The notes below the pieces were generated by a model, which had not been told where the DNA came from, did no database searches, and saw only the letters and a list, made by a program, of their open reading frames with translations. Shown piece after piece: positions 1-24,537 of a stretch of DNA of 55,946 nt (positions within the stretch are counted from its first letter, which is position 1; each line of letters begins with the position of its first letter). Source of the stretch: an uncultured virus (IMG/VR IMGVR_UViG_3300048813_000256). Taxonomy: Duplodnaviria; Heunggongvirae; Uroviricota; Caudoviricetes. The DNA lies in the IMG/VR virus record IMGVR_UViG_3300048813_000256; one strand, written 5' to 3'. The position numbers and the translations under genes are program-made.

Positions 1-125
1 CCTCCTCGCTTCCACAGGTACTCGAACGAAGTGAGGTATTCGGCGTTCGCTTCGCAATTCTTCGACGGGCAACCCTGCGGGGGACGGTCCTGCGGCCACG
101 CTTCGATGGTGTAGCTCTCCGCCAT
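1..125 (-). CDS. hypothetical protein, runs off the window start (partial)
   Basis: ATG at 125 directly after the TGA of the upstream gene; MAESYTIEAWPQDRPPQGCPSKNC... Confidence 0.5.
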   Translation of the reverse strand, partial: MAESYTIEAWPQDRPPQGCPSKNCEANAEYLTSFEYLWKRG

Positions 126-126
126 T

Positions 127-402
127 TCAGGCTCTCGCCTTCCGTCGTTTGCGCTTCCGCGCGTCGTACTCGCAGCGCGGGCAGCCAACGGTTGGCAGCT
201 TGCCGAAGGACGCACCGTCGCGCACTGCGTTGCATTCCGGGGAATGCTTCGGCGGACGCCCGCCCAGGAGCCCATTGCGGGCGCTGGCCGGCTTGGGGAC
301 TCCGGCGCCGCGCGCGCCTACGCACGCGGGACAGACCAGCTTGACGTGTTCGTGACCTGGGACGGTACAGGTCGGCGCGCGTCTTCGTTTCGTTGCAGGC
401 AT
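127..402 (-). CDS. small basic Cys-containing protein with SARNG..GGRP motif (possible DNA-binding)
   Basis: Start refined to MPATKRRR; CxxC pairs and KPASARNGLLGGRPPK. Confidence 0.6.
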   Translation of the reverse strand: MPATKRRRAPTCTVPGHEHVKLVCPACVGARGAGVPKPASARNGLLGGRPPKHSPECNAVRDGASFGKLPTVGCPRCEYDARKRKRRKARA

Positions 403-419
403 GATCTCCGATCCTATCA

Positions 420-722
420 CTACCATGCCGGCAGCGCCGCGATTTCGCGGTCGGTGCGGGCAATGATTTTGGCGCATCGTTCCTGATTCGGTTTGGTGGT
501 GGGCGGGCTGCTCAGGCAAAGGGAATAGAGTGCGGCGTCGGTGTCCCCGTGCAGGTGGCGGACGATTTCGATGTGGTGGTAGACAATCTCGGCTTCGTCG
601 GCGGCAAGCTTCCGCGCGGCCCAGACCGGCATGTCTTCGGCCTTGGGTTGGGGCGCGGTCGCGCAGCCAGCCGTGGTTAGCACGGCCAGCAGCGCGATTG
701 AGGCGGTTATCCGGCGATTCAT
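420..722 (-). CDS. putative lipoprotein
   Basis: MNRR + hydrophobic core + TAGC lipobox-like motif; coupled to the upstream gene. Confidence 0.65.
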   Translation of the reverse strand: MNRRITASIALLAVLTTAGCATAPQPKAEDMPVWAARKLAADEAEIVYHHIEIVRHLHGDTDAALYSLCLSSPPTTKPNQERCAKIIARTDREIAALPAW

Positions 723-889
723 CAGTTCCTCCCGGTGCCGGCGATCAGCTCGCCGTGCTGGTTGTACATCTCCCGCTCGTCCATGCGTCCGTTCAAGAAC
801 GTGGTGACGATGACGGCGGCAGCTCCCGGTTCTTCGCTGGGAAAAGTCAGCACGCGGACCATGACGTCGACCTGGTTGTAGGCTTCCAT
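722..889 (-). CDS. hypothetical protein
   Basis: ATG at 889 overlaps the TGA of the upstream ORF (TGATG); MEAYNQVDV... Confidence 0.6.
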   Translation of the reverse strand: MEAYNQVDVMVRVLTFPSEEPGAAAVIVTTFLNGRMDEREMYNQHGELIAGTGRN

Positions 890-1293
890 CAGCGGCCGCC
901 TTTCAGGCTGGGATTCTCCGCGCACACGGCGCGATCGAATCGAGCGTTGCCAACGGCGTTGCGGGTGCGCTCCTCAGTCTGGCCGGCGAGCTCGGGCTGC
1001 TGCATCGCGCCTTTGGCGATGCGGGCGGCTTGGCGGGTCATGGCGTCGGCGTCTCCGTCGTCGCACAGCGCGGCGATCTGGCGCAGGGCGGCGTCGATGG
1101 CTCCGCGCTCCGAGAGTCCGGCGATCATCTTGCGGTAATCGCTGATGCTGATTTCTACGGTGCCTTCGTTGTCAATGAGGCGCTGAATCGCCTTCTCGTC
1201 GGCGGCGATGGCGCGGGCTAGGGTTGGGGCGTTGCGTCGGCGCTGGATGGCGCGGGCGCTGGGCGCTGGGTTGGTTCGCTTGGTTGCTTTCAT
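889..1293 (-). CDS. hypothetical cassette protein
   Basis: 134 aa, GAAGGGAG RBS after repeat 1320-1371. Confidence 0.75.
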   Translation of the reverse strand: MKATKRTNPAPSARAIQRRRNAPTLARAIAADEKAIQRLIDNEGTVEISISDYRKMIAGLSERGAIDAALRQIAALCDDGDADAMTRQAARIAKGAMQQPELAGQTEERTRNAVGNARFDRAVCAENPSLKGGR

Positions 1294-1368
1294 CGGTGCG
1301 TGTGGCTCCCTTCGGTTTTTAGCTGCTCAGGATCGCGCCAACCTTGCGGCGGGCGCGATGCTCAGAAG

Positions 1369-1659
1369 CTAGGCATTCATGTGTTGCACGCTGCGGGCCT
1401 TAATGCGGTCATCGGCGGCGGTGCGCTGCTTTTCCGCCCGCTCTTTGGTTCTGGCCTTTGCCACGCGGGTTTGAATTTCCTCATACAAGGCCGGCCACTG
1501 GCTGCGAATGTGGGCGCGGGTGGCTTTGTCTTTGCCGCCCCAATACTCCACGGGGTCGTCGTCGAAGTCGTCGCGGTCGAACGTGTCCCATTGTTGATTG
1601 GCGCGGGCGGTCACTTCCTGCACGCATCCGCCTTCCACGATTACGAGAATGGTCTGCAT
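1369..1659 (-). CDS. hypothetical cassette protein
   Basis: 96 aa, RBS GAGG, TAG stop supplied by the repeat. Confidence 0.8.
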   Translation of the reverse strand: MQTILVIVEGGCVQEVTARANQQWDTFDRDDFDDDPVEYWGGKDKATRAHIRSQWPALYEEIQTRVAKARTKERAEKQRTAADDRIKARSVQHMNA

Positions 1660-1738
1660 CGGTTCCTCTTTCGGTTTTGGATTTAGCTGCTCAGGATCGC
1701 GCCAACCTTGCGGCGGGCGCGATGCTCAGAAGCTAGGA

Positions 1739-1930
1739 CTAAGCCCGCTGCTGCACGTCGTCTAAGAACGCTCCCACGGAGTTGCGGAGTTGGCAGATGC
1801 GGGTGTAGTCGTCCTGGGTAAATCCCTTGCCCTCCTCTCCGTGGATCATTCCGGCTGCGCTGGTCAGTGCGCTCTCGGCGGTTTGCAGGTTGCGGGTGAT
1901 ATAGTCCCGCGTCGATGTGGGTGCGCTCAT
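1739..1930 (-). CDS. hypothetical protein
   Basis: Start refined to MSAPTSTRDY (ATGA overlap with upstream stop). Confidence 0.65.
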   Translation of the reverse strand: MSAPTSTRDYITRNLQTAESALTSAAGMIHGEEGKGFTQDDYTRICQLRNSVGAFLDDVQQRA

Positions 1931-2139
1931 CGACCGCCCCGCGGTTTCCGCTCGTATAGAAAATGCTCGTTGGCCCGCATGTCCTGATGCTCGAATCCGA
2001 TGCGGCTGGATTCGCAGAAGTGGCGGACATCGCAAAGCAGGTTGGTGATTGCGTCCATTGGATCGGCGGACAATCCGTAGTCTTTCAGGACGCGGGCGGC
2101 TCTCGCGGCGCGTTCTGTGCTGCTGAGGTTTCCAAACAT
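1927..2139 (-). CDS. hypothetical protein (RA..A..L..Y / DLL.D..H family), paralog of 2881-3186
   Basis: 70 aa, GAAAGGAG RBS after repeat 2158-2210. Confidence 0.75.
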   Translation of the reverse strand: MFGNLSSTERAARAARVLKDYGLSADPMDAITNLLCDVRHFCESSRIGFEHQDMRANEHFLYERKPRGGR

Positions 2140-2222
2140 CTAGTGCTCCTTTCGGGTTAGCTGCTCAGTACCGCGTCAACCTTGCGGGCGGGCGCGGTGC
2201 TCGGAAGCTAGTCGTTCTCCGG

Positions 2223-2420
2223 TCAATCGTCGGCTCCGGTGTAGGCGGCGAGTCCGGGCCACTCCTCGATGAGTCCCTGCCATGCCTCCTCGTCGGCGCG
2301 GGCGCTGACTTCTTCTTCGGTGGTGGTGTCGTCGAAGTCGTATTTGTTGTCGTCCGCTGCGATGGCGAATAGCTGCTCGTAACGGTGCTTCTGCTGGGGC
2401 GTGAGGCGGGCGCGGGTCAT
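2223..2420 (-). CDS. small acidic hypothetical protein
   Basis: Start refined to MTRARLTPQQ (ATGA overlap). Confidence 0.65.
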   Translation of the reverse strand: MTRARLTPQQKHRYEQLFAIAADDNKYDFDDTTTEEEVSARADEEAWQGLIEEWPGLAAYTGADD

Positions 2421-2884
2421 GCGAAGTCCGGGTCTGCCGCGCTGATTACCAGCGTGCGCTGCGCGTAGGATTGCGGCGGTTCGTAGTTGTCGGCGCGGCG
2501 CTTTTCCTCTGCTGCCCGCAGGGCCTCGCGCTGCTGGTGGTGGGCGAGACAGTAGACTGCGCCTGGGCAATCGGAATCGCCTACTTCGTATGCGTCGTTG
2601 GCGGCGGCGTCGGCAAGGTTGGTCACGGTGCCAAGTTCGCGGCATGGGAAAACTTCGTCCCACTCTCCGGTGCCTAAACGGGCGTGCCGGGTTTCGTGGG
2701 TGCATCGGTCAAGGGTCTGCGCTGGATCGCCCGCGATGGTGCGGCGGAGGTAGCGCACGTTAGCAAGGGTGGCGTCGGTCTGGCGGCAATACTCCGCGAT
2801 GCACTCCGCCAGCGCGTGAACTTCGGCGTTGGCTCTTTCTGACGCGGCTAGGGTCGCGGCGCTGAGTCCGGTGGCGGCGCTCAT
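2417..2884 (-). CDS. hypothetical protein with Cys/His residues
   Basis: Start refined to MSAATG (ATGA overlap). Confidence 0.65.
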   Translation of the reverse strand: MSAATGLSAATLAASERANAEVHALAECIAEYCRQTDATLANVRYLRRTIAGDPAQTLDRCTHETRHARLGTGEWDEVFPCRELGTVTNLADAAANDAYEVGDSDCPGAVYCLAHHQQREALRAAEEKRRADNYEPPQSYAQRTLVISAADPDFA

Positions 2885-3186
2885 GGGCGCACCATCATTT
2901 GACGTTGGCGGCTCCATCGGGCGGGCGCTTCGGCTTCGCGTTTGAATTCGGTGGCGTAGTGGGTGCGGGCGGTTTCCAGCGCGGAGTCAAATTGCACTCC
3001 GGGGCAGCACGCGGCTAGGTGCATGAGGTCTGCCAGAAGATCAGTTAGCAGCGTGCCTCGGTTGGTTTCGTTGGTGTCCATGCTCTTGCGGTAGGCGGTG
3101 ACGGCGGCGCGGGCGCGGTGGGCGCGGTCGCGGTTGCTGGGGCGGATCGTGATTGTGTTAAGGTGTACAGGATCGCGTTTCGGCAT
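2881..3186 (-). CDS. hypothetical protein, paralog of 1927-2139
   Basis: NRDRAHRARAAVTAY...TDLLADLMH...F..A...ARTHY..E. Confidence 0.75.
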   Translation of the reverse strand: MPKRDPVHLNTITIRPSNRDRAHRARAAVTAYRKSMDTNETNRGTLLTDLLADLMHLAACCPGVQFDSALETARTHYATEFKREAEAPARWSRQRQMMVRP

Positions 3187-3271
3187 TGGTGCTGGTGTCC
3201 TTTCGGGTTTAGCTGCTCAAAGCGAATCAGAATCGCGTCATGCCACGGTGCCGGACGCGATTCTCACTTTC

Positions 3272-3394
3272 TTAGAGCCATCCAAGATCGCTCAAAGTAA
3301 CAAGCACGAAGATCGCCAGAGCGATCACGGCATCGGCTATCAGTGCGTTGCGAATTCCCTCCCACGCGGAACGCCAGAGGTTTTTCGGTTTCAT
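3272..3394 (-). CDS. small single-TM membrane protein
   Basis: MKPKNLWRSAWEGIRNALIADAVIALAIFVLVTLSDLGWL; ATGA overlap; stop at the edge of the variant repeat. Confidence 0.55.
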   Translation of the reverse strand: MKPKNLWRSAWEGIRNALIADAVIALAIFVLVTLSDLGWL

Positions 3395-4380
3395 TGGGTT
3401 TGCTCCTCTCCGCTGGCAAACAGGCTCATCTGCTGGGCTGGGATCGCGGCGGTTGGGGCAAGCGTTAAAACTTCTTCCGGCGCTGCGGGCGGTTGCTCCT
3501 CCTCCTCCGGTTCGTAATAGTCGGGGTCGTCCATGTCGTCCTCGTCGGGCAGCAATTCTTCTTCCTCGTCGCCGTTGGCGATGGCTTCCTGCTCGGCTTC
3601 GCAGATGCGCTCCTCCTCGCGGGTGGCGTGCGCGTGAGTGGGCGCGGGTTCGTCGGGTTCGTCGCCTCGGACGCTGATCTCTCCTGATCGCGGTCCCATG
3701 ACGAATTGATCCTTGCCGCGTTTTACCCTGATGCCTTCGTAGGTGAACTCCTCGCGGTGCATGTCGGCGTAGGTGGTGGTCGGCTTCTCGCCCCACTCCG
3801 CTGGGGTTAGCAGGGGCCAAAGATGCGCCTCGTTGCTGCTCTGTCCGGTGACGGTGTACGGTTTGCCTTCGATGGTGATGACTCCGCGAATCTTGCCGTT
3901 TGCAATGATGTCGGCGGAATAGGCTTTGTGGATGTCGCCTTCTCCGATGTGTTTCTGTTTGGCTGCGTCCCACTTGCCCCAAGACAGGCGCGAAGCGGGT
4001 ACGGTGTGGATCGGTGGCACAGGTTCCTCCTCTGGGGTTAAAACTTCTTCGGCTGGCTGGGGCGGCGCGGCTGGCTCGTCGTCCATGCGGTTGCTCGGGT
4101 CGTCGTCCGGCTCCGGGGGTTCGTCCTCGTCCTGGGGCGGCGCGTTCATGGTGAGCACTACCGCGCTCACTCCCGTATCTTCGTCGCCGATTTCGCCGGC
4201 CAATTCTTCGCAAAGGTCGGCGCGGTCTGGTGTCCACATCGGGGCTACAAAAATTTCCTGCCTCGGTGCCCAGATGAAACCAGCGGCGCGGACTCGTTTA
4301 TAAGTCTCCTCGTCGAGTCGGGCGCTGGCGGTTAGGCGGAGTTTGTTATCTTCGGGTGAATAGGTGGCGCTGTACTGCAT
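3391..4380 (-). CDS. acidic protein with an N-terminal domain like that of DUF3560-containing plasmid/ICE proteins
   Basis: ATYSPEDNKLRL.AS.RLD.ETY.RV.AAGF.WAP.Q..FVAP.WTP motif; start MQYSAT with GAAAGGAG RBS; D/E-rich linkers. Confidence 0.7.
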   Translation of the reverse strand: MQYSATYSPEDNKLRLTASARLDEETYKRVRAAGFIWAPRQEIFVAPMWTPDRADLCEELAGEIGDEDTGVSAVVLTMNAPPQDEDEPPEPDDDPSNRMDDEPAAPPQPAEEVLTPEEEPVPPIHTVPASRLSWGKWDAAKQKHIGEGDIHKAYSADIIANGKIRGVITIEGKPYTVTGQSSNEAHLWPLLTPAEWGEKPTTTYADMHREEFTYEGIRVKRGKDQFVMGPRSGEISVRGDEPDEPAPTHAHATREEERICEAEQEAIANGDEEEELLPDEDDMDDPDYYEPEEEEQPPAAPEEVLTLAPTAAIPAQQMSLFASGEEQTQ

Positions 4381-4449
4381 GGGGCTTCTCCTTTCGGTTT
4401 CTAGCTGCTCAGTCACCGCGCCAAACTTCTCGGGCGCGGTGCTGAAAAG

Positions 4450-4782
4450 CTAGTGTTTGGCGATGGCTTCAAGGGCGGCGGCGAATCGGCCTAAGCGGGC
4501 TTGCTCCTCGGCCACAAAGGCGCGGGCTTCGTGGGTGTGGGTTTCGTCGTCCACGCGGCACAGGCTGTCAAATTCTCCGCGGGCGGCGCGTACTTCCTCC
4601 TGCTGGGCTGGAGTCAGGCGAGGATCTGCGGCGGAGTCGGTCAGGATCGCGTCGAGCGCCTGCTGATAGGTTTGGCCGTGGCCGTCGGGCGCGTTGCAGT
4701 CGTTGCGCCAATACTCCGGGGCTTGGGCGGTGGCGCTGAGGGTTAGGGCGAGAGTGGCGGCGAGGGCGAATGGTCGGTGCAT
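4450..4782 (-). CDS. secreted hypothetical protein
   Basis: Signal peptide MHRPFALAATLALTLSATAQA; TAG from the repeat. Confidence 0.75.
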   Translation of the reverse strand: MHRPFALAATLALTLSATAQAPEYWRNDCNAPDGHGQTYQQALDAILTDSAADPRLTPAQQEEVRAARGEFDSLCRVDDETHTHEARAFVAEEQARLGRFAAALEAIAKH

Positions 4783-4857
4783 GTTGTGTTCTCCTTTGTG
4801 GGTGTTTCTAGCTGCTCAGTACCGCGTCAACCTTGCGGCGGGCGCGGTGCTCAGGGG

Positions 4858-5043
4858 CTAGGCTTCCATTCCTGCCAAGTTGTAGGCGTTGGCGGCGATG
4901 GCGTTCTGCACTCGCAAGGTCTGCTCTGTGAGTGCTTCCAGTTCGTCCCGCAAGTTGCTGGCGGCGGGCGCGTGGTGGGTGGCTTGGCTTAATAGCTTGA
5001 CTGCGGTCTGCACGGTGCCAAGAACAATAGGGAACTGCGTCAT
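4858..5043 (-). CDS. hypothetical cassette protein
   Basis: 61 aa, AAGGAGG RBS, TAG from the repeat. Confidence 0.7.
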   Translation of the reverse strand: MTQFPIVLGTVQTAVKLLSQATHHAPAASNLRDELEALTEQTLRVQNAIAANAYNLAGMEA

Positions 5044-5117
5044 GTGGTAATCCTCCTTGGTGTTTCTAGCTGCTCAGTACCGCGTCAACCTTTGCGGGCG
5101 GGCGCGGTGCTCAGGGG

Positions 5118-5978
5118 CTAGGCTTTGAGTTCGGCCATGCGCTCGGCAAGCTGCCACAGGGCGCGGTTTAGCTTTACGTCTTGGTCAATGCCCTTCACTT
5201 CGCGGGTGGTGACGGCGCGGAGTCTGCGGCCGCCTGGGTCGCGCTGAACTCCATGCAATCCGCCTCGGATGACGTTCTCTTGTACGCGGTTCATGGTGTG
5301 CCACAGGTCGGCGGCGTCATCTTCGGCGCGGCGCGGTCTGAGGAGCTGGGCGGCGGTTATGGGCGTGGTCACTTTGCCTTCGGAATCGGCGAAGCGCATG
5401 GTGTGGGCGGCTTCGGCGTATGCGGTCTGCTCTCCGGTGGTCAGTTGCAGATTGCCCCACACTCCGATTGCCCCGAGTGCTTTCTTGGAATCCTCCACGA
5501 TCCTGTAACTGCCTTCGATCACGTTTTCCAGAATGTTGCCTTTGTGGTGAATGGCGATGCTGCCCGTCGTCGATTCGGCGACTACCAGCCCGTTTGAGCA
5601 AACCAGCCGAAAGACTCCTGCAACTAGCTTGTAGGCGCTGGTTCCGTCGTGCGAGTTAATTAAAACGATCTCGGGAACGGAGTCCCCCACGGCAAGCGCG
5701 GCGCTGGTCTGGTGGCGGAATCGGATCATGTGCTTTGTAAAGGCTTCCTTGCCTTCAATCCGGCTGCTGCTCTGGCTGGCTTTGAACGGCTGAAAACCTT
5801 CGCGCATCATGCCCTCGATAATGTTCATGGTGGGAATGTAGGTGTAACGGTCTGAGCGGGAAGCGTGCGGCGCGGTCGCCATTGCGGACGGCGCATAGTG
5901 CGCGATCTGGTCAAGGGTTAGGGGCTGTTGTGGGCGGTTGGCTGGGGTTCCGTGGGTAAAGCTGTGTCGGTAGTTCAT
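5118..5978 (-). CDS. DUF932 domain protein
   Basis: SRSDRYTYIPT, TKHMIRFR, EIVLINSHDGTSAY, GVFRLVCSNGL, DLW..MNRVQEN, LNRALW motifs. Confidence 0.9.
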   Translation of the reverse strand: MNYRHSFTHGTPANRPQQPLTLDQIAHYAPSAMATAPHASRSDRYTYIPTMNIIEGMMREGFQPFKASQSSSRIEGKEAFTKHMIRFRHQTSAALAVGDSVPEIVLINSHDGTSAYKLVAGVFRLVCSNGLVVAESTTGSIAIHHKGNILENVIEGSYRIVEDSKKALGAIGVWGNLQLTTGEQTAYAEAAHTMRFADSEGKVTTPITAAQLLRPRRAEDDAADLWHTMNRVQENVIRGGLHGVQRDPGGRRLRAVTTREVKGIDQDVKLNRALWQLAERMAELKA

Positions 5979-6069
5979 GGTTTGGTGCTCCTTCGCGTTT
6001 TAAGCCCGCTGGGGCTGGGTTAGCTGCTCAGTACCGCGTCAACCTTGCGGCGGGCGCGGTGCTCAGGGG

Positions 6070-6495
6070 CTAGAGGGTGGCGGCGGTTTCGGCGGTTAGG
6101 GTTAGCGTGGTTTGCGTTTCCGGCTTGGCTGGTAGCTGGATCGTGAGCAAGCGGGCATAGATGGCGGCGGGCGTGACAATCCGCCACTTGGCCCGCTCCG
6201 GGGCGATGGCAAGGACGCGGAGCACGCGGGCGGCGTGTTCGTCCATGCTGAAACCTGCTTTCAGTTTGCCCGCGATTTTCCAGCCGTAGGTATGCGGTCG
6301 CCCGTCCGGTCTGCCGTTGGCTAGGTCGAGCGAGTCCGGGCGGAAGCGCACGTCCCACTTTTCCATGATCTTGCCGTCTGCCATGTAAGCGCGGGTTTTG
6401 CGCTCCCAGTTGCAGAGTCGATCTTCCGAGTCTGGGATGGTGCGTTCCTGTTCTAGCCTGAGAATTTCGCGTCCGTGTGCTGATAGCTTCGCCAT
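6070..6495 (-). CDS. hypothetical cassette protein
   Basis: 141 aa, AAGGAG RBS, TAG from the repeat. Confidence 0.75.
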   Translation of the reverse strand: MAKLSAHGREILRLEQERTIPDSEDRLCNWERKTRAYMADGKIMEKWDVRFRPDSLDLANGRPDGRPHTYGWKIAGKLKAGFSMDEHAARVLRVLAIAPERAKWRIVTPAAIYARLLTIQLPAKPETQTTLTLTAETAATL

Positions 6496-6567
6496 GCGTG
6501 TTACTCCTTCGGTGAATTTAGCTGCTCAGTACCGCGTCAACCTTGCGGCGGGCGCGGTGCTCAGGGG

Positions 6568-6963
6568 CTAAAGCAATCCGGCATTTTTGAGGCGCTGAAT
6601 CCTTCCGGCGAGCTCCTCCGCGTTGGCTTCCCGCGCCTGTGTCTCGGTCTGCTGCGGGGCGGGCGCTGCGGGCGTGGGGCTGGGCGTGGGGCTGGCTATG
6701 ATCTCGCCACAGACAAAACGGAAATTTTCTTCCCTCTCCGCCTCGCATTCGCCGATGATTCCCAGCGCGTTATAGAATGCGGCGCGGAGTGCGGTTACTC
6801 CGGCTTTGCTCTGGGGCTGTCGGGTTCCGGTAAGTGCGCTTAGGATGCGGGCGCGGCGGTCGGCGTTTCTGGCTCCGGCAAGCTGCCAGATGTCGAAACG
6901 GTTGGCGGTGTTGTGGCCTAGCAATCGAATGGCGGTGAGTGTGGCGGGCGTGACGGTGGTCAT
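6568..6963 (-). CDS. hypothetical cassette protein
   Basis: 131 aa, AAGGAGG RBS, TAG from the repeat. Confidence 0.75.
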   Translation of the reverse strand: MTTVTPATLTAIRLLGHNTANRFDIWQLAGARNADRRARILSALTGTRQPQSKAGVTALRAAFYNALGIIGECEAEREENFRFVCGEIIASPTPSPTPAAPAPQQTETQAREANAEELAGRIQRLKNAGLL

Positions 6964-7050
6964 CGGTGGTAATCCTCCTTCGGGTTGTCTAGCTGCTCAG
7001 TACCGCGTCAAGCATTCGGAGTGCCGAAGTCCGGGCGCGGTGCTCAGGGG

Positions 7051-7374
7051 CTAGGGGCGCGGCGGCTGAATGAATTTTTCAACGTCGGCTAGGGCGGCGT
7101 GTGCTGCCAGCATTTCCGCTGCTTCGACGTGGGTAATCGCGTCGAGGAACGGCTGCGGGCGGCGGTGAATCCACGCGATAAAGACATCATGGCGGCTCTG
7201 GCCATTTATGCCGGGTACTTGGTCGAGTCGGTCGCTAGCGTAGAAGCGGCAAGCAACGTCAAAGGCGGTCACAGGGGCGCGGCGGATCGCTTCGCAAACG
7301 GAGCAATAGTTAAGGCGGCTGCAAGTCTGCTGGCGGTGTAGGGCAACGGCGCGGGTGAATTCGTTTTGCATCAT
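7051..7374 (-). CDS. hypothetical cassette protein (CxxC motif)
   Basis: Start refined to MMQNEF after AAGGAG RBS; TAG from the repeat. Confidence 0.7.
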   Translation of the reverse strand: MMQNEFTRAVALHRQQTCSRLNYCSVCEAIRRAPVTAFDVACRFYASDRLDQVPGINGQSRHDVFIAWIHRRPQPFLDAITHVEAAEMLAAHAALADVEKFIQPPRP

Positions 7375-7592
7375 GGGCGTTTTCTCCTTCGGTCTTTTTA
7401 GCTGCTCAGGATCGCGCCAACCTTGCGGGCGGGCGCGGTTCTCAGAAGCTAGTGAGCGGGTTTCGGTGTTGGTGTTGGTGGTGGTCATGGGTTTAGTTTT
7501 CGCCCCTGTTCGGGTGCGTGGTGCTTTGTTGGCAACGTGTGTTTAGCTGCTCAGGATCGCGCCAACCTTGCGGCGGGCGCGGTTCTCAGAAG

Positions 7593-7709
7593 CTACGCGG
7601 CGCGGCGGCTGCGGGGTTGGTGAATCATTGCGAGAATCTTCCGCGTGGGTGCGTTGGCGCGGAGTGCGGCGATTAGTTTGTCGGTCTGGTTGGCGCGTGC
7701 GGTTTTCAT
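7593..7709 (-). CDS. 38-aa basic peptide (not in the ORF track)
   Basis: GAAAGGAG RBS, MKTARANQTDKLIAALRANAPTRKILAMIHQPRSRRAA, TAG from the repeat. Confidence 0.65.
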   Translation of the reverse strand: MKTARANQTDKLIAALRANAPTRKILAMIHQPRSRRAA

Positions 7710-7780
7710 GGTGTGGTGCTCCTTTCGGGTTTTTAGCTGCTCAGTACCGCGCCAACCTTGGCGGGCGCGGTGCTCAAAAG

Positions 7781-8002
7781 CTAGGCGGATTCAAAGAATC
7801 GGGCGCTGGCGATTACTGCCGTGTGTCCGTTCGCGTATTCGGTCGTGATCAGGTCATAGTCTGGGATGTGATTGCAGGAAATGAGGCGAACATCCGTCAC
7901 GGTCAGGTCGGACACGGCTGGAATCTGTTTCTGGAAACAGTCGGTAAAGGATTTGGCTGTTACTTTGTCGCCGATCTTGAATTGTGGTGCGGTAGTGGTC
8001 AT
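7781..8002 (-). CDS. small protein, possibly SH3/KOW-like
   Basis: FKIGDKVTA start motif; RBS; TAG from the repeat. Confidence 0.7.
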   Translation of the reverse strand: MTTTAPQFKIGDKVTAKSFTDCFQKQIPAVSDLTVTDVRLISCNHIPDYDLITTEYANGHTAVIASARFFESA

Positions 8003-8068
8003 GGTGCTCCTTTCAGGTTTCTAGCTGCTCAGTACCGCGCCAGACTTCGCGGGCGCGGTGCTCAAAAG

Positions 8069-8317
8069 CTAGTAAAGTCGGAACGCGGGCGCGGGTTCGG
8101 GCGCGGTATTTTCGGTACATGCGGCGGGCGCGGGTTCCAAGGTTAAAGACGATTGCCCAAGGCGGGCGGCGATCCTGCGGGCATTCTCAGAGGCGCGGCG
8201 GAGTCCCACTCCATGATTGACTCCGCCACAGACGCAAACGCACGTTTGGTGCTTCGCGTCATAGCATCTTTCGTCACAGCCCGTTAGCCCGGTAATCGCG
8301 TGCATGAGCATCGGCAT
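8069..8317 (-). CDS. small Cys/His-rich putative metal-binding protein
   Basis: CDERCYDAKHQTCVCVCGGVNHG. Confidence 0.7.
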   Translation of the reverse strand: MPMLMHAITGLTGCDERCYDAKHQTCVCVCGGVNHGVGLRRASENARRIAARLGQSSLTLEPAPAACTENTAPEPAPAFRLY

Positions 8318-8386
8318 TTTGTTCCCTCCGGTAGTTTTAGCTGCTCAGTACCGCGCCAGCCATGCGGCGGGCGCGGTGCTCGGAAG

Positions 8387-8803
8387 CTACGCGGCGGCGC
8401 GGCGGGCGGGCTGGGGATTCTCCGCGCCCGTCATTTCCCAGCGGGCTAACTGGCGCGGCATCCAAGTAGGATCGGCATATTCCGCCCGCATCGCGGCGGC
8501 GCGGGCGATACCTTCCGCCCGCCATTCGGCAGACGGCACAAAGGCGGGCAGGTTAATAGGTACGCCAGTCTCGCCTAGCAGCATGATTCCGGCAGTGGCG
8601 GGCAGTCCCTTAAAATCGCGGGCGATTGCTTCCAGTTCATCGGCGCGGCGCAAGCTGTGGGCGCGGACATTGTGCAAGAACGTGGCGCGAGTCCACGGCG
8701 CGTAAGGTTTCGGGGTTAGAAGATCGGCGGGCGCGGCGGGCGCGAAGATCGGCGGCGCGGCGGGCGGGAATGCTAGGCTGGTTTGCTGCTCTTGCGCGTG
8801 CAT
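8387..8803 (-). CDS. hypothetical cassette protein
   Basis: 138 aa, GAAAGGA RBS, TAG from the repeat. Confidence 0.7.
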   Translation of the reverse strand: MHAQEQQTSLAFPPAAPPIFAPAAPADLLTPKPYAPWTRATFLHNVRAHSLRRADELEAIARDFKGLPATAGIMLLGETGVPINLPAFVPSAEWRAEGIARAAAMRAEYADPTWMPRQLARWEMTGAENPQPARRAAA

Positions 8804-8876
8804 CTGGTTTTCCTTTCGTCTTGCGTCTAGCTGCTCAGTACCGCGCCAACCTTGCGGCGGGCGCGGTGCTCGGAAG

Positions 8877-9593
8877 CTACGCGGCCATAATCTCTACATC
8901 TAGCGCCATGAGCGCCGCCCGGACGTTGTTAGCGCAATCCTTGACAATGCGGGCGAAGTTAGGCGCGGGCGATCCGGCGGGCGCTTTCGCTTCCCAGATG
9001 CGAGAGAGTAGGGCAGTCACTTCGCGGGCGATTCCGTAGCTGGAAAAGTCAATCGGCATGGAGCGAGACAGGAAAGCAGCGTCTAGCCCATCTTCCGTAT
9101 TCATCGTGAAAATAAAGATCGTGTTAGGCGGGAATGCTGTGGCATCCAAGAGCGAGAGGAAAGCAGTTTGCGCCGCCCGCGTCATATAGTGCGCCTCATC
9201 TACTAAGACAAGGTGCGCTTTGCAGTTTTTCGTGATGTCCCAAGGATCATGCGGCATCCGATAGCATTGCGCCGCCACACTGTTTACAGTGTCTAGCGTG
9301 CAATCCTTAGAGGCTATGTGATGGAGTTCAGCGGGCATGAGCGCCGCGATAGCAAGCGCAAGAGTGGTCTTGCCTGTACCGGATGGCCCAACAAAACGGA
9401 GTGAGCAAGACTTAGGTTGCCTGATTAAACTGGCGGCGATTTTTCGCGCCTTTTCTAGTCCGACAAACTGATCTAAGGTACGCGGGCGGAATTCCTCAGT
9501 GAGTGAGACAGGGAAGCTAAAACCGCATTGTGCGGAATCTGGCGCGGCATCTGGCGCGGCGGGCTGGGATACTAAGGTTAGATCGTTTTCCAT
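8877..9593 (-). CDS. AAA+ ATPase of the clamp-loader clade (DnaX/RarA-like), short
   Basis: FRPRTLDQFVG, Walker A GPSGTGKT, Walker B LVLVDEAH, FIFTMN, LSRS, NVRAAL. Confidence 0.85.
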   Translation of the reverse strand: MENDLTLVSQPAAPDAAPDSAQCGFSFPVSLTEEFRPRTLDQFVGLEKARKIAASLIRQPKSCSLRFVGPSGTGKTTLALAIAALMPAELHHIASKDCTLDTVNSVAAQCYRMPHDPWDITKNCKAHLVLVDEAHYMTRAAQTAFLSLLDATAFPPNTIFIFTMNTEDGLDAAFLSRSMPIDFSSYGIAREVTALLSRIWEAKAPAGSPAPNFARIVKDCANNVRAALMALDVEIMAA

Positions 9594-9631
9594 TTCCTTG
9601 CCTCTTTCTCGCCTGTGGCGATCCTGCCATT

Positions 9632-9661
9632 AACCTATGCCGCATAGGTTTCTAGAGTCAA
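9632..9661 (-). promoter_or_regulatory. sigma70-like promoter with an overlapping palindromic operator
   Basis: Minus strand TTGACT-N18-TAGGTT; inverted repeat AACCTATGC-N-GCATAGGTT at 9632-9650; A-tract upstream at 9684-9691. Confidence 0.6.
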
Positions 9662-9925
9662 TAACAATCCGCGCCCGCCCGTCTTTTTTTTCGTGTCCTG
9701 GCCCATAACGGGAATGCCGGCATTCTGGGAAACCAGCCCGCCCGCCTTGCCCGCCCGTCTGCCCTGCCCAGCCCGCCCGCGTCTGCCCGCGTCTGCCAGC
9801 CATCGGCGCGGGCCATGACATCGGCGGGCGATTAGCAAGCGATCCGCACGCGATCCGCGAGAATCGAGTCTCGCCGCCAGTTTTCGAGTGGCATTCCAGT
9901 TTAAGTACCGTGTAATCAGCGGCTT

Positions 9926-10012
9926 AGGGGTAGGGGGCTTGCATCTCTAGCGACGCCGCGCTGCGACCGGCCTGCTGCGATGTACACACTCCCGCAGCAA
10001 AAGATTTTTCCT
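9926..10012 (+). other. candidate cos/packaging-initiation region
   Basis: GGGGTAGGGGG...ATCTCT...GACCG...AAAAGATTTTT pattern resembles sequences at cos ends of HNH/P27-TerS phages; sits at the divergence point just before HNH-TerS. Confidence 0.4.
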
Positions 10013-10077
10013 ATGAACGCTGCCGAAAAACAGGATCACGAAGAATCGGCCACCGATCCCGTGCGGTTGGGGGCCTG

Positions 10078-10437
10078 ATGCCTGCGCGTGCGCCTGTGCA
10101 TCGCGTGGCGGTGGCCAATGGGATCGGCTCAGACGCGGCCCGGCGCAAGGTTTACAACTCCTCTCTCTGGCGATATGGCACGCGTCCGAGGATCTTGGGG
10201 CGCGATCCCGTGTGTCAGATCGCCGTGCTCTGCCGCGGCTACGGGTCGAGCGTCGAAGTGGACCATGTGATCCCGATTCAAGACGGCGGCGACGAAAGCG
10301 ACGAGAACCTGCAGGGCACTTGCCACGCTGATCACTCCAGAAAGACAGCCATGGAACGTCGCGGCGGTTGGGTGCAGCCGGATCCGAAAGCAACCGTCCG
10401 CGTGGCGACGGCGCCGGCCAACCTGCGAAAGGCGTGA
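10078..10437 (+). CDS. HNH endonuclease (HK97 gp74-like terminase cofactor)
   Basis: RDPVCQ...VDHVIP..DGG....NLQ..C..DHSRKT; directly upstream of TerS. Confidence 0.9.
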   Translation: MPARAPVHRVAVANGIGSDAARRKVYNSSLWRYGTRPRILGRDPVCQIAVLCRGYGSSVEVDHVIPIQDGGDESDENLQGTCHADHSRKTAMERRGGWVQPDPKATVRVATAPANLRKA

Positions 10438-10440
10438 GTT

Positions 10441-10965
10441 ATGGGTGGAAGAGGATCGGGCGGTTCCAACCGCAAAGCAGCGGAGTTGAAGAAGCTGCAG
10501 GGAAATCAGGGACATCGCGACCTAAAGGTCCGCGCCATCAAAGGCGCGCCTGGACTCCCCGCAATGCCACCCGGCCTGACCAAGGTCGCGCAGAAAGAGT
10601 GGAAGGCGATCGTTCCGCTCCTGGTTCGCATGGGCGTGGATCTTAGCGCCGGCGACGGCAAAGCGCTGGCGGCCTATTGTTCCTGCTACGCGCAGTGGAT
10701 GCTGGCCGAGGCAGAGATTGAGCAGCACGGCATCACCATCCCGACATTCCACTTGGCCGATGGCGAGTTGATCGCCATGGACCGCAAAGTAAATCCCGCA
10801 GTCCGGGTGCGCTCTGACGCGCTGCGCCAGATGAAGAGTTTTCTGATCGAGTTCGGCCTAACTCCTGCCTCGCGCTGCAAGCTGGAAGTAAAAGATCATG
10901 GTGGAACACAAGACCCACTGGAAGACTTCCTCAGCGGAAAAGCTTCTGGGGACGTCGTGCAGTAA
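10441..10965 (+). CDS. terminase small subunit, P27 family
   Basis: LKKLQGNQG, A.KEW, LAAYC, NPA, EFGLTPASR motifs. Confidence 0.92.
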   Translation: MGGRGSGGSNRKAAELKKLQGNQGHRDLKVRAIKGAPGLPAMPPGLTKVAQKEWKAIVPLLVRMGVDLSAGDGKALAAYCSCYAQWMLAEAEIEQHGITIPTFHLADGELIAMDRKVNPAVRVRSDALRQMKSFLIEFGLTPASRCKLEVKDHGGTQDPLEDFLSGKASGDVVQ

Positions 10966-12700
10966 CATCCCGACCTTTGCTAGGTACTGCCGCGACGTGT
11001 TGGCCGGAAACATCCCCACCGGCCGGCTGGTGTTCCTGGCGGTCCAGCGCCACCTCGACGATCTCGACCAAGGGGCCAAGCGCGGCCTCCGCTTCGATCA
11101 GGACGCGGCCGCCCGCGTCATCAAATTCTTCCGCGACTTCGCTCCCTTCAAGCTTGAGCCCTTCCAGCAGTTCAAGGCGGGCTGCCTGTTTGGATGGAAG
11201 GGACCGGACGGGTTCCGCCGCTTCCGCACCGCGTACATGGAGGAAGGCAAGGGCAACGGGAAAACTCCGTGGGGCGCCGGAATTGCAGTTTACGGGCTGG
11301 TGGCCGATGGGGAGCCGGACGCCGAGATCTATTGCGCCGCGGTGACCAAGGAACAGGCTGGAATCAGCTACCGCGACGCCGCGATCATGCGCGATGCCTC
11401 GCCGCTGCTCAAAGCGAAGATCGCCAAGCACCGCAACAATCTCTCGATCGAGAAAACCAATTCGTTTCTGCGGCCGATTTCGAGCGAACATCGGGGACTC
11501 GACGGCAAGCGGCCGCACATCGTCCTGATCGACGAACTGCACGAACACCCCACCAGCCTGGTCGCCGACAAGATGCGCGCCGGGACCAAGGCCCGCCGGC
11601 AGGCTCTCATTCTTGAGATCACCAATTCCGGATACAACCGGGAAAGCGTGTGCTACCACCACCACGAATACAGCCAGAAAGTGCTGGAGGGCATCCTCGA
11701 AAACGACGGCTGGTTCGCCTATGTCTGTCACCTCGACGCGTGCGAGGAGCACCAGAAGAACGGCTACATGCAGCCCGCCGGGGACTGCAATAAGTGCGAT
11801 TCCTGGCTGGATCCGGAAACCTGGATAAAAGCCAACCCGGGCCTCGGCACCATCCTCCCGCGGAAGTACCTGCAAGAGCAGGTGACCGAGGGCGTGGCGA
11901 TGCCCAGCAAGGAAAACATCGTCCGGCGCCTGAATTTCTGCATGTGGACCCAGCAGGACGTGCGCGCGATCGGCGCCCAGGCGTGGGCCGCATGCGCCGG
12001 CGTGGAGCGGGACGCGGACCCGGTTAAAGTGCGCGAGCGATGGCTGGAGGAGCTGCGCGGCTTTTACTGCTACGGCGGCGTCGACATCGGCTGCACCGAT
12101 GACATGACCGCTTTTCTGTTGCTCTTCCCCAAGCAGGGCCCGCTGCTGAAACCGCGGGTGCTGCCCTGGTTCTTTACACCGCGTGAGTCGGTAGGGTTGC
12201 GGACCCAGCAGGACCGCGTGCCTTACGACGCGTGGGAGAAACAAGGCTTCCTGACGGTCACGCCCGGGCAGACCACGGATTACGATTTCATCCGCGCGAA
12301 AGTCAACAAGTGCGCCGCCGACTTCGATCTGCGAGAGGTTCACTTCGACCCGTACCGCGCGGTCCACATCGTCAACAATCTGCTGGCTGATGGGATCCGG
12401 ATGGTGAAGCACAGCCAGGGCATCCTCGCCATGCACGATCCTGTGGTCAACGTTCTCTCGATGGTACGGGGCGCGGAGTTTGAACACGGCAACAATCCCG
12501 TGCTGACCTGGATGGCCGACAACCTGGTGGTGCGCGCGGACGCTCAGGGAAACCAGCAGATGCAGAAGCCGGAGAATCCCAAGTCGCCCAAAAAGATTGA
12601 CGGCATGGTCGCCTTCGCGCTGGCTAAAGGCGCGCAGGATGCCAATGGCGGGGACGGCGGCGGCTCAGTCTATGAAACCCGCGGCGTGCTGGTGCTGTGA
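10898..12700 (+). CDS. terL: terminase large subunit
   Basis: RRFRTAY, Walker A GKGNGKT, DELHEH, WIKANPGLG, FDPY, KIDGMVA; true start uncertain. Confidence 0.95.
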   Translation: MVEHKTHWKTSSAEKLLGTSCSNIPTFARYCRDVLAGNIPTGRLVFLAVQRHLDDLDQGAKRGLRFDQDAAARVIKFFRDFAPFKLEPFQQFKAGCLFGWKGPDGFRRFRTAYMEEGKGNGKTPWGAGIAVYGLVADGEPDAEIYCAAVTKEQAGISYRDAAIMRDASPLLKAKIAKHRNNLSIEKTNSFLRPISSEHRGLDGKRPHIVLIDELHEHPTSLVADKMRAGTKARRQALILEITNSGYNRESVCYHHHEYSQKVLEGILENDGWFAYVCHLDACEEHQKNGYMQPAGDCNKCDSWLDPETWIKANPGLGTILPRKYLQEQVTEGVAMPSKENIVRRLNFCMWTQQDVRAIGAQAWAACAGVERDADPVKVRERWLEELRGFYCYGGVDIGCTDDMTAFLLLFPKQGPLLKPRVLPWFFTPRESVGLRTQQDRVPYDAWEKQGFLTVTPGQTTDYDFIRAKVNKCAADFDLREVHFDPYRAVHIVNNLLADGIRMVKHSQGILAMHDPVVNVLSMVRGAEFEHGNNPVLTWMADNLVVRADAQGNQQMQKPENPKSPKKIDGMVAFALAKGAQDANGGDGGGSVYETRGVLVL

Positions 12701-15514: not shown

Positions 15515-18500
15515 ATGAAGAACCAAACGCACAAGCCGTGGATCATGACCGCCAAAGCGGGCGGCGTGCTCGAAATCCTGCTCTACGAAATGATTGGGCA
15601 GGACTTTTGGACCGGCGAAGGCACCACCGCCAAGTCCTTCGCCGAAGATCTGAAGGCTGCCGGCAGCGTCTCGAAGATCCATCTGCGGGTGAATTCGCCC
15701 GGCGGCAACGTGTTCGACGGCATCGCCATCTACAACACGCTGCTCTCCCACGGGGCCAAAGTCACGGCCCAGGTCGACGGCCTCGCCGCCTCGATCGCCA
15801 GCGTCATCATCATGGCCGCTTCCGAGATCTCGATGGGCGATAACGCCATGATGATGATCCACAACCCTTCCACCGTGATCGGCGGCGACTCCAACGACAT
15901 GCGGAAGATGGCCGACACCATGGACAAGGTGAAAACCAGCATGATCACGGCCTACCGCCGGCACACCAAGAAATCAACCGAGCAGATTGGCGCGCTGATG
16001 GATGCCGAGACGTGGATGACGGCCCAGGAGACGGTCGACAACGGCTTCGCCGAAAAGGTGGTCACCCCCGAGGGCAATGACGCCGACGTCGCCGCCAATT
16101 TTGGCCCGGTGCTCGCGGCCTTCCGCAAAGTTCCGCAGCAGATCGCGGCCCGCTTCGGCGGTTCCACTTCCCGCACCAAGCGCGTGGATGGCGAGAACCT
16201 GACGTCGGAATGCTTTCTCTATGTGGGCGATGAGGAAAAAACCGCTACCTGGCATCTGCCGTGGAAATTCAGCTCCGAAGAAAAAACTGAGAGCCACCTG
16301 CGCGATGCGCTGGCGCGCTTCGATCAGACCGACATTCCCGCGAGTGAGAAGCCGGCGGTCCGCGCCAAGCTGGTGCGGCTGTGCAAGGAGCATGGGATCA
16401 CCGTCTCCGACGAGAAGTCGGGCAAAGCGCTGGCCAAGCTGATCGCCGCGGCCGAACCCGGCGAGTGTGGCTGCGCCTGCCTGCCCTGCAGCAAAGAAAA
16501 CAACTGCCAGGATTGCACCAACGAAGGTTGCGACGACGAGGACTGCGAGGACTGCGCGATGCAGGCCAAAGCCCAGGCCAAGAAGACGAAGGCCAAGGCG
16601 CGCGCGGCCAAACTCGCCAAGCGCACTCGCGCGCAGATCGCGGTTGGCGAAGGGGAATGTGGCTGCACCTGCCTGCCCTGCAGCAAAGAGAATAACTGCC
16701 AGGACTGCACCAACGCGGATTGCATGGATGACGATTGCGAAGACTGCCCCATGCAGGACAAGGCTTCCGCGAAAGCGCTGGCCGCCCTCGAATCCCAACT
16801 CGCAACCGCGAATCAGACCATCGATTCCTTGCGGGGCGATCTCGAAACGGCCGTGGCAGCCAGCACAGACGGCGCCGCCACCGCTGCCCTCAACCTGAAA
16901 TGGTTGGAGCGCATCCGCGGGGATCTGGAGAAGGGCGCGGAGCTGTCCGCTTCGGCGGTCAAGGATCTGCCAGCGGAACGCGCGGCTGCGGAATCCCGCA
17001 TCGCCCAGCTCGGGGCGGACCTGGAAGCCGCGCAAACCGCCCTCGCCACCGAGAAGGCGGCGCGCCTCGAGGAATCCGGGGCACACGCGAAGTTTAGCGA
17101 GCGTCTGAGCGGAGAACTGCGGCAAGCGGGCAAACTGCATGCGGCTGCGGTCGAAGAAATGACTGACCTGGCGCGCCTGGCCGAAGTCCGCGTCACTCAG
17201 CTTGCGGCCGAACTGGAGGGCGCCCAGAGCGCGCTCGCCGGCGAGAAAAAGGCACGCGTCGACGAGAACGCCGCATACGTCCAGTGGACCGGACGCCTGA
17301 CCGGGGAACTTTCCAGCGCGGGCAAGCTCTATGCCTCCTCCATTGAAGAGTTGTCGCGGCGCATCGCGGCCGCCGAGTCTCGCGTGGCTCAGACCGAAGC
17401 CGAACTGGAGACGGCGCAAGCCGATCTTGCCGCCGAGAAACAGGCGCGCGTCGATGAGAACACCGCTCATGTGGAGTGGAGCGAACGCCTGACCGGGGAA
17501 CTCTCGAATGCGGGCAAGCTTTATTCCTCCGCCATGGAAGAACTGCCGCCGCGTATCGCTGCAGCGGAAGGCCGCGTCACGCAGATCTCCGCCGACCTGG
17601 AGACCGCCCAGGCTGCCCTCGCGGCCGAGAGAAAAGCGCGAGTGGAGGAAGCGACCGCATACGTGCAGAGTACGGCGCGCATCACCGCCGAGCTTTCCAG
17701 CGCGGGCAAGCTCTGTGCCGCCGCACCGCAACGCATCGCCGCTGCCGAGGGCCGCGTCACTGAAATCACGGCCGAGCTGGACACGGCGCAGGCTGCGCTA
17801 CTGGCCGAGAAAAAGGCTCGATCCGAGGAGGCCGCCGGGCATGTGCGGTGGCCCGAACAGATGCGCGCCGATCTCCAGAAGTGCGCGGATTTCTACGCCG
17901 AGGCATTGGCAGAACTCCCCCGCCGCGTCCGCGCCGCGGAAGTCCTGGCCGAACAAGCCCAGACTCACCTGGCCAACGCCCGCACCGCGAGCCTTCCCGC
18001 TGCGGTGATTCAGGCACTCGAAGCCGAGTCCAAGACCCGCGCCGAAGAAGCCGTCGCGATCAAGCAGTTCGTCGATCGCGTGACCGGCGATTTCGAGAAG
18101 GCCGCCGCGCTCTACAAGGAAGCTTTGGCTGAACTTCCCCGCCGCGCGCGCGCCGCCGAGACTCGTGTCACCCAGATGGCTGCCGAACTGACCGGGCTCG
18201 AGGCTGAGAACAGCTCCGGGAAGAGAGCTCGCAGCGAAGACGCCACGCGCCGCACTGAGGAGATCGCGGGCCTGACTGCCGAACTATCCAGCGCCGGCAA
18301 AGTGTGCACCGACGCGGTGGAAGAACTTTCCCGGCGGGCGCGCACCGCCGAGACTGGCGCGGCACAGATCACCAGCGAACTTGCCGGCACTCAGACGGCG
18401 ATGGAAGCCGCAAAGAAAGCGCGCGGCGAGGAAACCGCGACTCTCGCTGTCGAGATCGAACGCCTGACCGCCGACTTGACGCATGCGGGGAACGTCTACG

Positions 18501-21754: not shown

Positions 21755-22570
21755 ATGCGTGACCTCGCCCCGACATTATCGCATCCCGTCGCCATCGTCG
21801 TGCTGGCGCGGTATTGGGAGATCTTCGCGGGCTTCCTCGACAGCGTGGAAGAGATCGCGCCGGACGTTCCCAAAATTCTGGTGCGCGATCTTTCTCCCGA
21901 CAACTCAGGGCAGGCTCCGAAAACGTGGCCGCAACTCGGAGGACGCTGGCGGACGATCGCGGGCCCGGCAAAGTTTTCGATGGCGGCCAACGCCAACCTG
22001 GGAGTGAAAGCGGTCGACGCCGGCGCGGACGTCCTCTACTGCGGCGACGATATCCGTTTTCCCGAAAGCGGGAGCCTCGAGCGGCTGCAGGCGATCGCTT
22101 ATGCCCATCCCGAAGTGGGCATCCTTTCGCCCCGGCTGGATGGCCGCGCGAGCGTGGCCCTGGGGCATCCCGGCTCGGAGTGCGATTGGGTGTTGCCGTT
22201 GGATATGTGGTTTCCCTGCGTGTACGTCAAGCGCGAGCTGATCGACAGGATCGGCTATTGGGATGAGCAATTCGATTCCTTTGGCGACGATTTCGACTAC
22301 TCGGTGCGCGCGCTGTTTGCCGGCTACCGGCTGGCTGTGACTACTGCGGTCACGGTGGAGCATGGGAAGCCAGGCCCCGGCGGTCCGCCCACATTCGTGA
22401 GAAAGGGTGGCACGGCGCGGCACGCCGAACAGAAAGCGGAGACGCACGCGAAACTGGCTGCCAAATATGGGGTCACGCGGGATCGTCTGGCGGAATATTT
22501 CCGCACCGGCGAGCTGGCGATTTTGCAGCCGCCGGCGATCGTCGATACGAAGATCGGGGCCGCATCATGA
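21755..22570 (+). CDS. glycosyltransferase family 2-like
   Basis: FSMAANANLG, VLYCGDDI, GILSP, IGYWDEQF, DDFDYSVR. Confidence 0.85.
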   Translation: MRDLAPTLSHPVAIVVLARYWEIFAGFLDSVEEIAPDVPKILVRDLSPDNSGQAPKTWPQLGGRWRTIAGPAKFSMAANANLGVKAVDAGADVLYCGDDIRFPESGSLERLQAIAYAHPEVGILSPRLDGRASVALGHPGSECDWVLPLDMWFPCVYVKRELIDRIGYWDEQFDSFGDDFDYSVRALFAGYRLAVTTAVTVEHGKPGPGGPPTFVRKGGTARHAEQKAETHAKLAAKYGVTRDRLAEYFRTGELAILQPPAIVDTKIGAAS

Positions 22571-24113: not shown

Positions 24114-24133
24114 AATCGACTTGGGGGTAGCGA

Positions 24134-24412: not shown

Positions 24413-24537
24413 TCGCTAACGGAGCCGGCGCCCCGCAGCCGACACTCGCCACCAGTCCCGGAGGAAGAAGAAAGAAAAACAGGGAAACCTCCGCGATCTG
24501 GGCTCCTTGGAAGTGCCGGCTGCGCGACGCAGGCCTG

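Follow-up and report, generated by a model that had tools for sequence, protein, structure and literature searches.

A repeated, stop-anchored hairpin between the genes of a phage operon, and its possible role in RNA processing and gene exchange

In a 55,946-nt stretch of DNA from an uncultured tailed phage (IMG/VR record IMGVR_UViG_3300048813_000256; hereafter the window, on whose whole length positions are counted), a divergent operon read on the minus strand carries small genes separated by near-identical hairpin elements. What does such an element do? The initial annotation took the array for a gene-shuffling platform built on attC-like sites, as in an integron, and named RNA-processing sites and repeat-mediated homologous shuffling as alternatives. 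Our analysis shows that the array is not an integron and resembles one only in outcome. The two alternatives taken jointly fit best: the hairpins are rather probably T7-like processing signals in the early operon of an Acidobacteria phage, which double as swap points of the kind known as promoter early stem-loop (PeSL) elements.

The hairpin element and its fold

The window holds 15 elements of 50-64 nt, all on the minus strand between 1320 and 8879, and one variant copy that ends at 3210, as initially counted; no further copies were found elsewhere within the window. A pattern drawn from the 3' arm, with at most two mismatches allowed, gives 19 matches against 0.01 expected from 100 shuffles, and these correspond to 14 of the 15 3' arms and to five left arms seen on the other strand. 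Each element runs from TAGC to GCTA. The first TAG is the stop codon of the upstream open reading frame (ORF) in 12 of the 15 copies and lies in frame 6 nt and 15 nt past the stop in two more, exactly as had been claimed; the remaining element, at 7399-7451, stands at the end of a 95-nt unit that has no gene of its own. The distance from the end of the element to the next ATG is 18-26 nt in 14 of the 15 measured spacers and 42 nt in the other. The count of about 20 small genes also holds, with 19 ORFs between 1369 and 9593, and four more follow down to 127.

A pattern scan of metagenomes returned 31 loci (numbered with an L), of which 23 were kept, several of them redundant; we dropped three duplicates (L263, L264, L291) and five chance matches without a hairpin (L269, L275, L278, L283, L286). 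Together with the window, the kept loci provide 57 unique elements, and 51 of these plus the element of L199 form our alignment (A2, 52 sequences). Of the 63 elements whose upstream sequence is long enough to judge, 53 have the TAG as an in-frame stop. In 53 of the 57 unique elements the two arms pair in register, free of bulges, over 22 positions with mismatches fixed at 6, 9, 12 and 21, and the conserved part stops at position 22. A covariance model had been proposed as a check, and the hairpin does covary: among the aligned sequences 12 of the 22 pairs change on both sides, which none of 500 shuffles reaches. Kinship between the sequences inflates such counts, but slid controls are far lower. 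Wobbles speak for a fold of the coding strand, on which there are 82 G-U against 39 A-C in 954 cells.

This hairpin family is real, uncatalogued and anchored on stop codons. The Rfam 15 family models gave no match in window positions 1-11000 (E up to 10), and the hammerhead core has no match in the window's element on either strand. Readings as a K-turn or a hammerhead were rejected, as geometry and core are absent, and so were readings as sigma-54 or sigma-70 promoters, whose spacing is wrong by inspection against the consensus. A covariance model (R2) run over 151 genomes of the class retrieved only G002, whose element was a training sequence. In viral contigs, a loose pattern matched 116 stretches, with one match each among the 80 listed, which we treat as chance; a tight pattern gave one match, without a hairpin, and the ATPase at the head of the operon, used alone as query, found no relative. 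Literature searches, largely without subscription papers, found no description of this element.

Probable RNA processing: slot, leader and geometry

Three lines point to RNA processing. The first is what occupies the element's slot in related prophages. Type II hammerheads are present in 7 of 52 related ATPase loci, six of them within 3-9 nt of the ATPase gene end, and the controls of this search gave none antisense and none in shuffles. The four that were tested all match RF02276, with E values of 0.0006-0.02 and scores just under the gathering cut-off. These hammerheads stand beside the ATPase gene in Acidobacteria prophages (L198, L203, L208, L209, L210, L213, L217), and a twister-P5 lies two genes upstream in L212. 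By eye, L207 and L124 carry variants of the hammerhead core. Tandem hammerheads between prophage genes have been shown to cleave (PMC3088659).

The same slot is also home to a second hairpin family, with 10 copies in L281, L284 and the four prophage loci L202, L204, L206 and L211, and listed in L288 and L205 as well. It opens on a stop codon, covaries at 13 of 22 pairs (0 of 500 shuffles), has its mismatches at 9, 12 and 14, and follows the ATPase gene in L281. Rfam at gathering level names no family for it in three loci (L205, L211 and the intermediate L199), and a search for its pattern in viral contigs found the left arm in 0 of 35. An upstream operon with its own promoter was seen in L281 and L284, where genes for an AAA_5 ATPase, a DUF3150 protein (L284) and a DUF2201 protein are separated by second-family hairpins. 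Within this one phage family, two hairpin families and hammerhead ribozymes replace one another at a single genomic position; if our reading is right, this would allow a natural comparison bearing on the function of intergenic ribozymes in prophages.

The second line is the leader. The initial annotation saw a single promoter at the head of the array, which we place at 9661-9632 (TTGACT-18 nt-TAGGTT), with a 19-bp palindrome over the -10 (9632-9650) as a possible operator. A strict sigma-70 scan found no site in window positions 1-10100, so this call rests on conservation: the layout, palindrome included, recurs in four related phages (L292, L272, L284/L288, L281). Of the 5 visible ATPase promoters, 4 have the 3' end of the hairpin, GCAGCTA, behind them, either on the predicted start or immediately downstream of it, and two further promoters have it too. 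Since the end of the element recurs at predicted transcription starts, each gene would come out of processing with a leader that resembles the primary leader; a relic of recombination would look alike. Two observations can be recorded on these regions. The -10 of the early promoters is of an unusual TAGGWW form under a conserved palindrome, a likely operator. At L277:748-764, after the ATPase stop, there is a collapsed element in which the hairpin has been deleted between its two internal 7-bp direct repeats, while stop, core and ribosome-binding site are retained.

The third line is geometry. RNase III of E. coli needs about two helical turns (PMC1540722). Its preferred pairs are G-C at the proximal box 1 and either A-U or U-A at box 2 and at box 4, with a wobble preferred for the distal box (PMC1540722, PMC6212723, bioRxiv 10.1101/2023.03.12.532304). 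About two turns of covarying duplex, the 22 in-register positions, lie in the intercistronic gap. Scanned under the E. coli rules, the register centred on 11/12 scores 6.21 out of 10 and the next best 3.36; this centre is the middle of the 22 positions and leaves an invariant A-U pair on each side of the predicted cuts. Permuted columns do as well at this fixed centre in 202 of 20000 trials (p about 0.01). The second family has the same lower-half pattern at centre 14/15 (10, 10 and 9 of 10 copies). RNase III is encoded in all four genomes behind prophage loci, the window's own host being only deduced. The fit is moderate and suggestive, not proof.

Several points weigh against this reading. 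When any centre is allowed, the permutations reach the score in 2432 of 20000 trials (0.12), and the fit was made post hoc with E. coli rules. The box-2 positions, those that weigh most in E. coli, lack A-U at both places in 12 of 53 elements, and the upper half usually has there a C-G that is inhibitory (PMC1540722, PMC6212723). At the unshifted centre 11/12 the second family scores 1.7 out of 8 and needs a shift of three positions. Conservation of the 3' arm is inflated by the search anchor and by homogenisation of the copies, the host 16S stalks have no obvious likeness to the element, and the antisense strand folds at lower energy in 12 of the 15 window copies. The window's own promoter is the exception that lacks the shared leader. 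Finally, the one RNA run, in the form of contigs, showed no RNA ends, and one of its contigs spans element 2.

Weighing both sides, we regard a function of the hairpin at the RNA level as very likely, and the case for RNase III as the cutter as evenly poised. We infer the following sequence of events. A promoter near the genome end would read the ATPase gene and about 20 accessory genes as one long early transcript. After each stop codon the RNA would fold back on itself over about 22 pair positions, without bulges, and the next ribosome-binding site would stand directly behind this hairpin. Host RNase III would be the most likely enzyme to cut the hairpin, with cuts predicted at 12/13 of the left arm and 10 nt before the 3' end, and each gene would thereby obtain its own message with a standard leader. 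Homologous recombination in the hairpin, the spacer or the ribosome-binding site could then delete, swap and reorder genes and leave the expression signals intact. If this is true, one short element both splits the early message and turns genes into exchangeable expression modules, and two uncatalogued hairpin families come with predicted cut sites.

Gene shuffling, the integron question and rival explanations

Of the proposed gene-shuffling platform, the shuffling itself is borne out by relatives that gain, lose and reorder units (array ORFs are called W1 to W14; their coordinates are given in the next section). The order in L271 is ATPase, W1, W2, a new gene and DUF932, without W3-W8; the new gene occupies the place of W3 and has no blastp similarity to it. 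A homologue of W7 follows DUF932 and W10 in L267, and in the window W7 precedes DUF932; in L292, W14 comes ahead of W12c, whereas the window has them the other way round. Contigs of sequencing runs X2 and X4 continue with other sequence beyond position 7714, ahead of W4. In X3 and in X8, one contig each passes directly from element to element and so omits a unit (W10 and W14, respectively), possibly an assembly artefact across 34-56 identical bases. Array parts without cover in X4 and X8 carry no weight.

The same check on relatives had foreseen junctions fixed at the element, and this part did not hold. In two close pairs, where the element follows the upstream gene, the sequences stay identical for 4 and 10 nt beyond the element; in X2/X4 the junction is 20 nt beyond it. 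In L271 the left arm of the last element is a different one, yet its 3' arm and spacer match those of the DUF932 unit in the window. When L274 is compared with L284, the entire element keeps to the downstream gene. Breakpoints within ORFs occur as well (in L282, where the C-terminal part of W12a is a separate unit, and in L276/L284), and there are copies whose arms are of two different types. The sample of junctions is small. The gain, loss and reordering of genes among relatives is real and fits homologous recombination, as with the T4-type PeSLs, whose crossovers fall at several places and yield chimeric units (PMC2839356). Ordinary homologous recombination would be possible because the units are near-identical direct repeats.

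Could the array still be an integron with unusual sites? The core consensus of attC sites is AAC/GTT with RYYY/RRRY flanks, and these are absent from the element, whose ends are TAGC/GCTA. The three outer nucleotides are complementary at 51 of 210 positions, or 42 of 162 in a circular form, which is chance only. Extrahelical bases and an unpaired central spacer, described as common to attC sites (PMC2727003), are absent here, where 53 of 57 unique elements pair in register. The absence of intI from the window is confirmed, both among 189 ORFs searched with Pfam and by tblastn, about one third of the genome being probably missing; no integrase or HUH family was found among these 59 + 130 ORFs. 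The linked recombinase that the annotation advised looking for is absent from the window; L281 and L292 do have tyrosine integrases, located a few kb away from their arrays. They score 15.8 and 16.2 bits on TIGR02249, where the cut-off is 265, and look like ordinary prophage integrases. There is no single crossover point with a site travelling with the upstream gene: two pairs agree with one, and in two others the element goes partly or wholly with the downstream gene. The first gene is the most conserved, not the most variable, and is fixed across phages down to about 42% identity. The array is not an integron because it lacks bulged bases, flank complementarity, an integrase in the window, a variable first gene and a single crossover point, and the idea of attC-like sites finds no support.

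Structure-specific DNA recombination sites of another kind could be imagined, in which a tyrosine recombinase encoded outside the window would act on the folded antisense strand at the 7-bp core GCAGCTA. Such an integron analogue with its own chemistry, with a half-site behind the early promoters and a hairpin that doubles as RNA processing signal, is in our view very improbable. It would account for the core behind six promoter-like sites without a hairpin, for the stronger antisense fold, for the integrases near two arrays, for the two close pairs in which the whole element follows the upstream gene and for the element-to-element skips in X3 and X8. It is contradicted by the lack of extrahelical bases and of flank complementarity, by two other pairs in which the 3' arm, or even the entire element, keeps to the downstream gene, by mixed-arm copies and by junctions at +4, +10 and +20 nt and inside ORFs. 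The integrase scores are far from the IntI cut-off, the core is not kept in L202, L204, L206 and L211, and the first gene is fixed. That each element is a promoter or promoter-terminator unit, as in T4-type PeSLs, is hardly credible. The element's 3' end does equal the sequence at predicted transcription starts and a TTGRCG hexamer sits within the 3' arm, but a -10 at usable spacing is lacking, neither a promoter nor a terminator was called on any of the elements, both strands lack a U-tract behind the stem, and the real promoters of relatives are laid out differently.

Among readings at the RNA level, it is unlikely that the hairpins stay uncut and work as stem-loops that stabilise or insulate the 3' end and are coupled to a standard translation-start module, similar to repetitive extragenic palindromes, perhaps opened by the terminating ribosome. 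The stop codon at the stem base, the imperfect RNase III fit, one L284 copy that keeps the stop at the cost of a pair, and distant relatives (L119, L120, L129) that repeat only a small hairpin and ribosome-binding site before each gene are all in its favour. Yet self-cutting hammerheads fill the identical slot, and the fixed mismatch positions and fixed length of 22 positions suggest a measuring protein. The hairpin might also be cut by itself, as a new small ribozyme, or by a phage-encoded nuclease instead of RNase III. Interchange with hammerheads, the conserved unpaired positions 6, 9 and 21 and the absence of an Rfam match agree with this, and we still hold it decidedly unlikely: to judge from known classes, a single helix with 1x1 mismatches and no junction or pseudoknot offers no place for a catalytic core. 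As for a nuclease, no ribonuclease family was found among the scanned ORFs of this partial genome, where the only nucleases named are HNH and terminase.

The array, its genome and known systems

From its promoter, the operon begins with the ATPase gene (8877-9593, 238 amino acids), assigned by family searches to the clamp-loader clade of AAA+ proteins. It is auto-named RarA in relatives, yet small subunits of RFC score higher, and recombination at short homologies driven by RarA was dropped as an explanation for this reason. Element 1 (8828-8879) provides the ATPase stop and is followed by W1 (8387-8803, 138 amino acids, no family, with a homologue in L271), element 2 (8338-8389), the Cys/His-rich W2 (8069-8317, 82 amino acids), whose tail holds a remnant left arm from 8133, element 3 (8022-8071), W3 (7781-8002, 73 amino acids), element 4 (7734-7783), W4 (7593-7709, 38 amino acids) and element 5 (7544-7595). 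Element 6 (7399-7451) closes the decayed 95-nt unit. Next come W6 (7051-7374, 107 amino acids, no family), element 7 (6990-7053), which has a longer loop, W7 (6568-6963, 131 amino acids), element 8 (6519-6570), W8 (6070-6495, 141 amino acids, no family), element 9 (6021-6072) and W9, the DUF932 protein (5118-5978, 286 amino acids).

Beyond element 10 (5067-5120) lie W10 (4858-5043, 61 amino acids), element 11 (4809-4860), W11 with its hydrophobic N-terminus (4450-4782, 110 amino acids) and element 12 (4402-4452), with one extra base in the 3' arm. W12a (3391-4380, 329 amino acids) has an N-terminal model that resembles N-termini in DUF3560/LPD29 clusters, a lead only (score below 0.9), and is followed by the hydrophobic W12b (3272-3394, 40 amino acids). 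The variant element (3210-3268), a shifted hairpin and then the conserved 3' end, precedes three coupled ORFs (2223-3186): W12c (2881-3186, phrog_3963), W12d (2417-2884) and W12e (2223-2420). Element 13 (2158-2210) is the copy with its TAG 15 nt past the stop, and element 14 (1684-1735) the one at 6 nt; between them are the coupled W13a (1927-2139, weak phrog_3963) and W13b (1739-1930), together 1739-2139. W14 (1369-1659, 96 amino acids) and element 15 (1320-1371) end the array. The operon continues with four ORFs without elements (127-1293), the last encoding a Cys/His protein; in relatives, homologues of this protein stand at the end of the arrays.

Most array genes have no family. Relatives add LPD29, DUF7007, DUF7249, a WGR-ligase and a DUF2201 module, and an anti-host role of array genes is plausible from their position and from such domains. 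Outside the elements, CGCCCGC and CCGCGCC are strongly enriched on the coding strand of 127-9593 (34 occurrences where 9.4 are expected; late genes, after scaling, have 3.3). An inverted cluster lies near 9669-9810, and the signal is weaker in relatives; these motifs could be element remnants like that at 8133, Ala/Pro codon bias or a Chi-like signal.

On the plus strand, from 10078, the window has the HNH, terminase subunit, portal, protease, capsid and tail genes of a tailed phage. It is probably about two thirds of a genome, since the completeness of the nearest record, 48 kb long, is rated at 56%. Peat metagenomes make up the five best-matching runs, and 38 of the 40 closest ATPase loci in genome contigs carry Acidobacteriota names; therefore, the host is probably an acidobacterium. 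The view that these are early accessory genes, at a probable genome end, gained support: the ATPase match is 35-343 nt from a contig end in 7 of 12 close viral loci, which suggests that the early operon is at a genome terminus; in the window that end would lie between 9661 and 10078. Other features of the late region are a Clp-type head protease of 1207 residues whose long tail consists of 192-nt repeats (15515-19138), genes for glycosyltransferases and for a nucleotide-sugar epimerase, placed between those for capsid and connector (21755-27687; possible virion glycosylation), a 147-residue helix-turn-helix protein among morphogenesis genes with a weak sigma-factor match (30381-30824; phrog_3282, E 8e-7), and a 1230-residue ORF with 120-nt repeats, probably the tape measure (48479-52171).

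How does the array compare with known systems? Like integron cassette arrays, it has promoterless ORFs in the same orientation, one promoter and variable content, and, like attC arrays, imperfect inverted repeats between ORFs that often hold the stop codon (PMC2727003). Unlike integrons, it is without the AAC/GTT core, extrahelical bases, unpaired central spacer and IntI, and without an attI-type variable first position or a single crossover point. With the tandem hammerheads of prophages it shares the punctuation of polycistronic phage RNA, there near genes of anti-restriction type (PMC3088659), and type II hammerheads fill the element's slot in related prophages, whereas the window's element has no hammerhead core. 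The likeness to PeSLs (PMC2839356) lies in repeated intergenic units with a ribosome-binding site, in recombination between units by which ORFans are lost, gained and rearranged, in units of chimeric make-up, in crossovers at more than one place and in the lack of any dedicated recombinase found. PeSLs hold a sigma-70 promoter, which the array elements lack, and the latter include the upstream stop in a long covarying stem; mini-circles have been demonstrated for PeSLs (PMC2839356).

The resemblance to phage T7 is in the layout: one or more promoters at the genome end, one long early message, and related hairpins of 50-60 nt from stop to ribosome-binding site. The RNase III sites of T7 are named R0.3-R1.3. 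In the T7 record we see five related hairpins in the early region, placed between stop and ribosome-binding site where folded, and the T7 early precursor carries five RNase III signals (PMC3867540). Unlike T7, the array has 15 copies rather than 5, near-identical and homogenised, with variable genes between them, and 1x1 mismatches where T7 has an internal loop that is open. Here it is the lower half of the hairpin that agrees with the E. coli-type determinants, in T7 the upper half, and cleavage is here a prediction from the sequence. Since the device is known in kind from T7 and from PeSLs, it comes as a moderate surprise.

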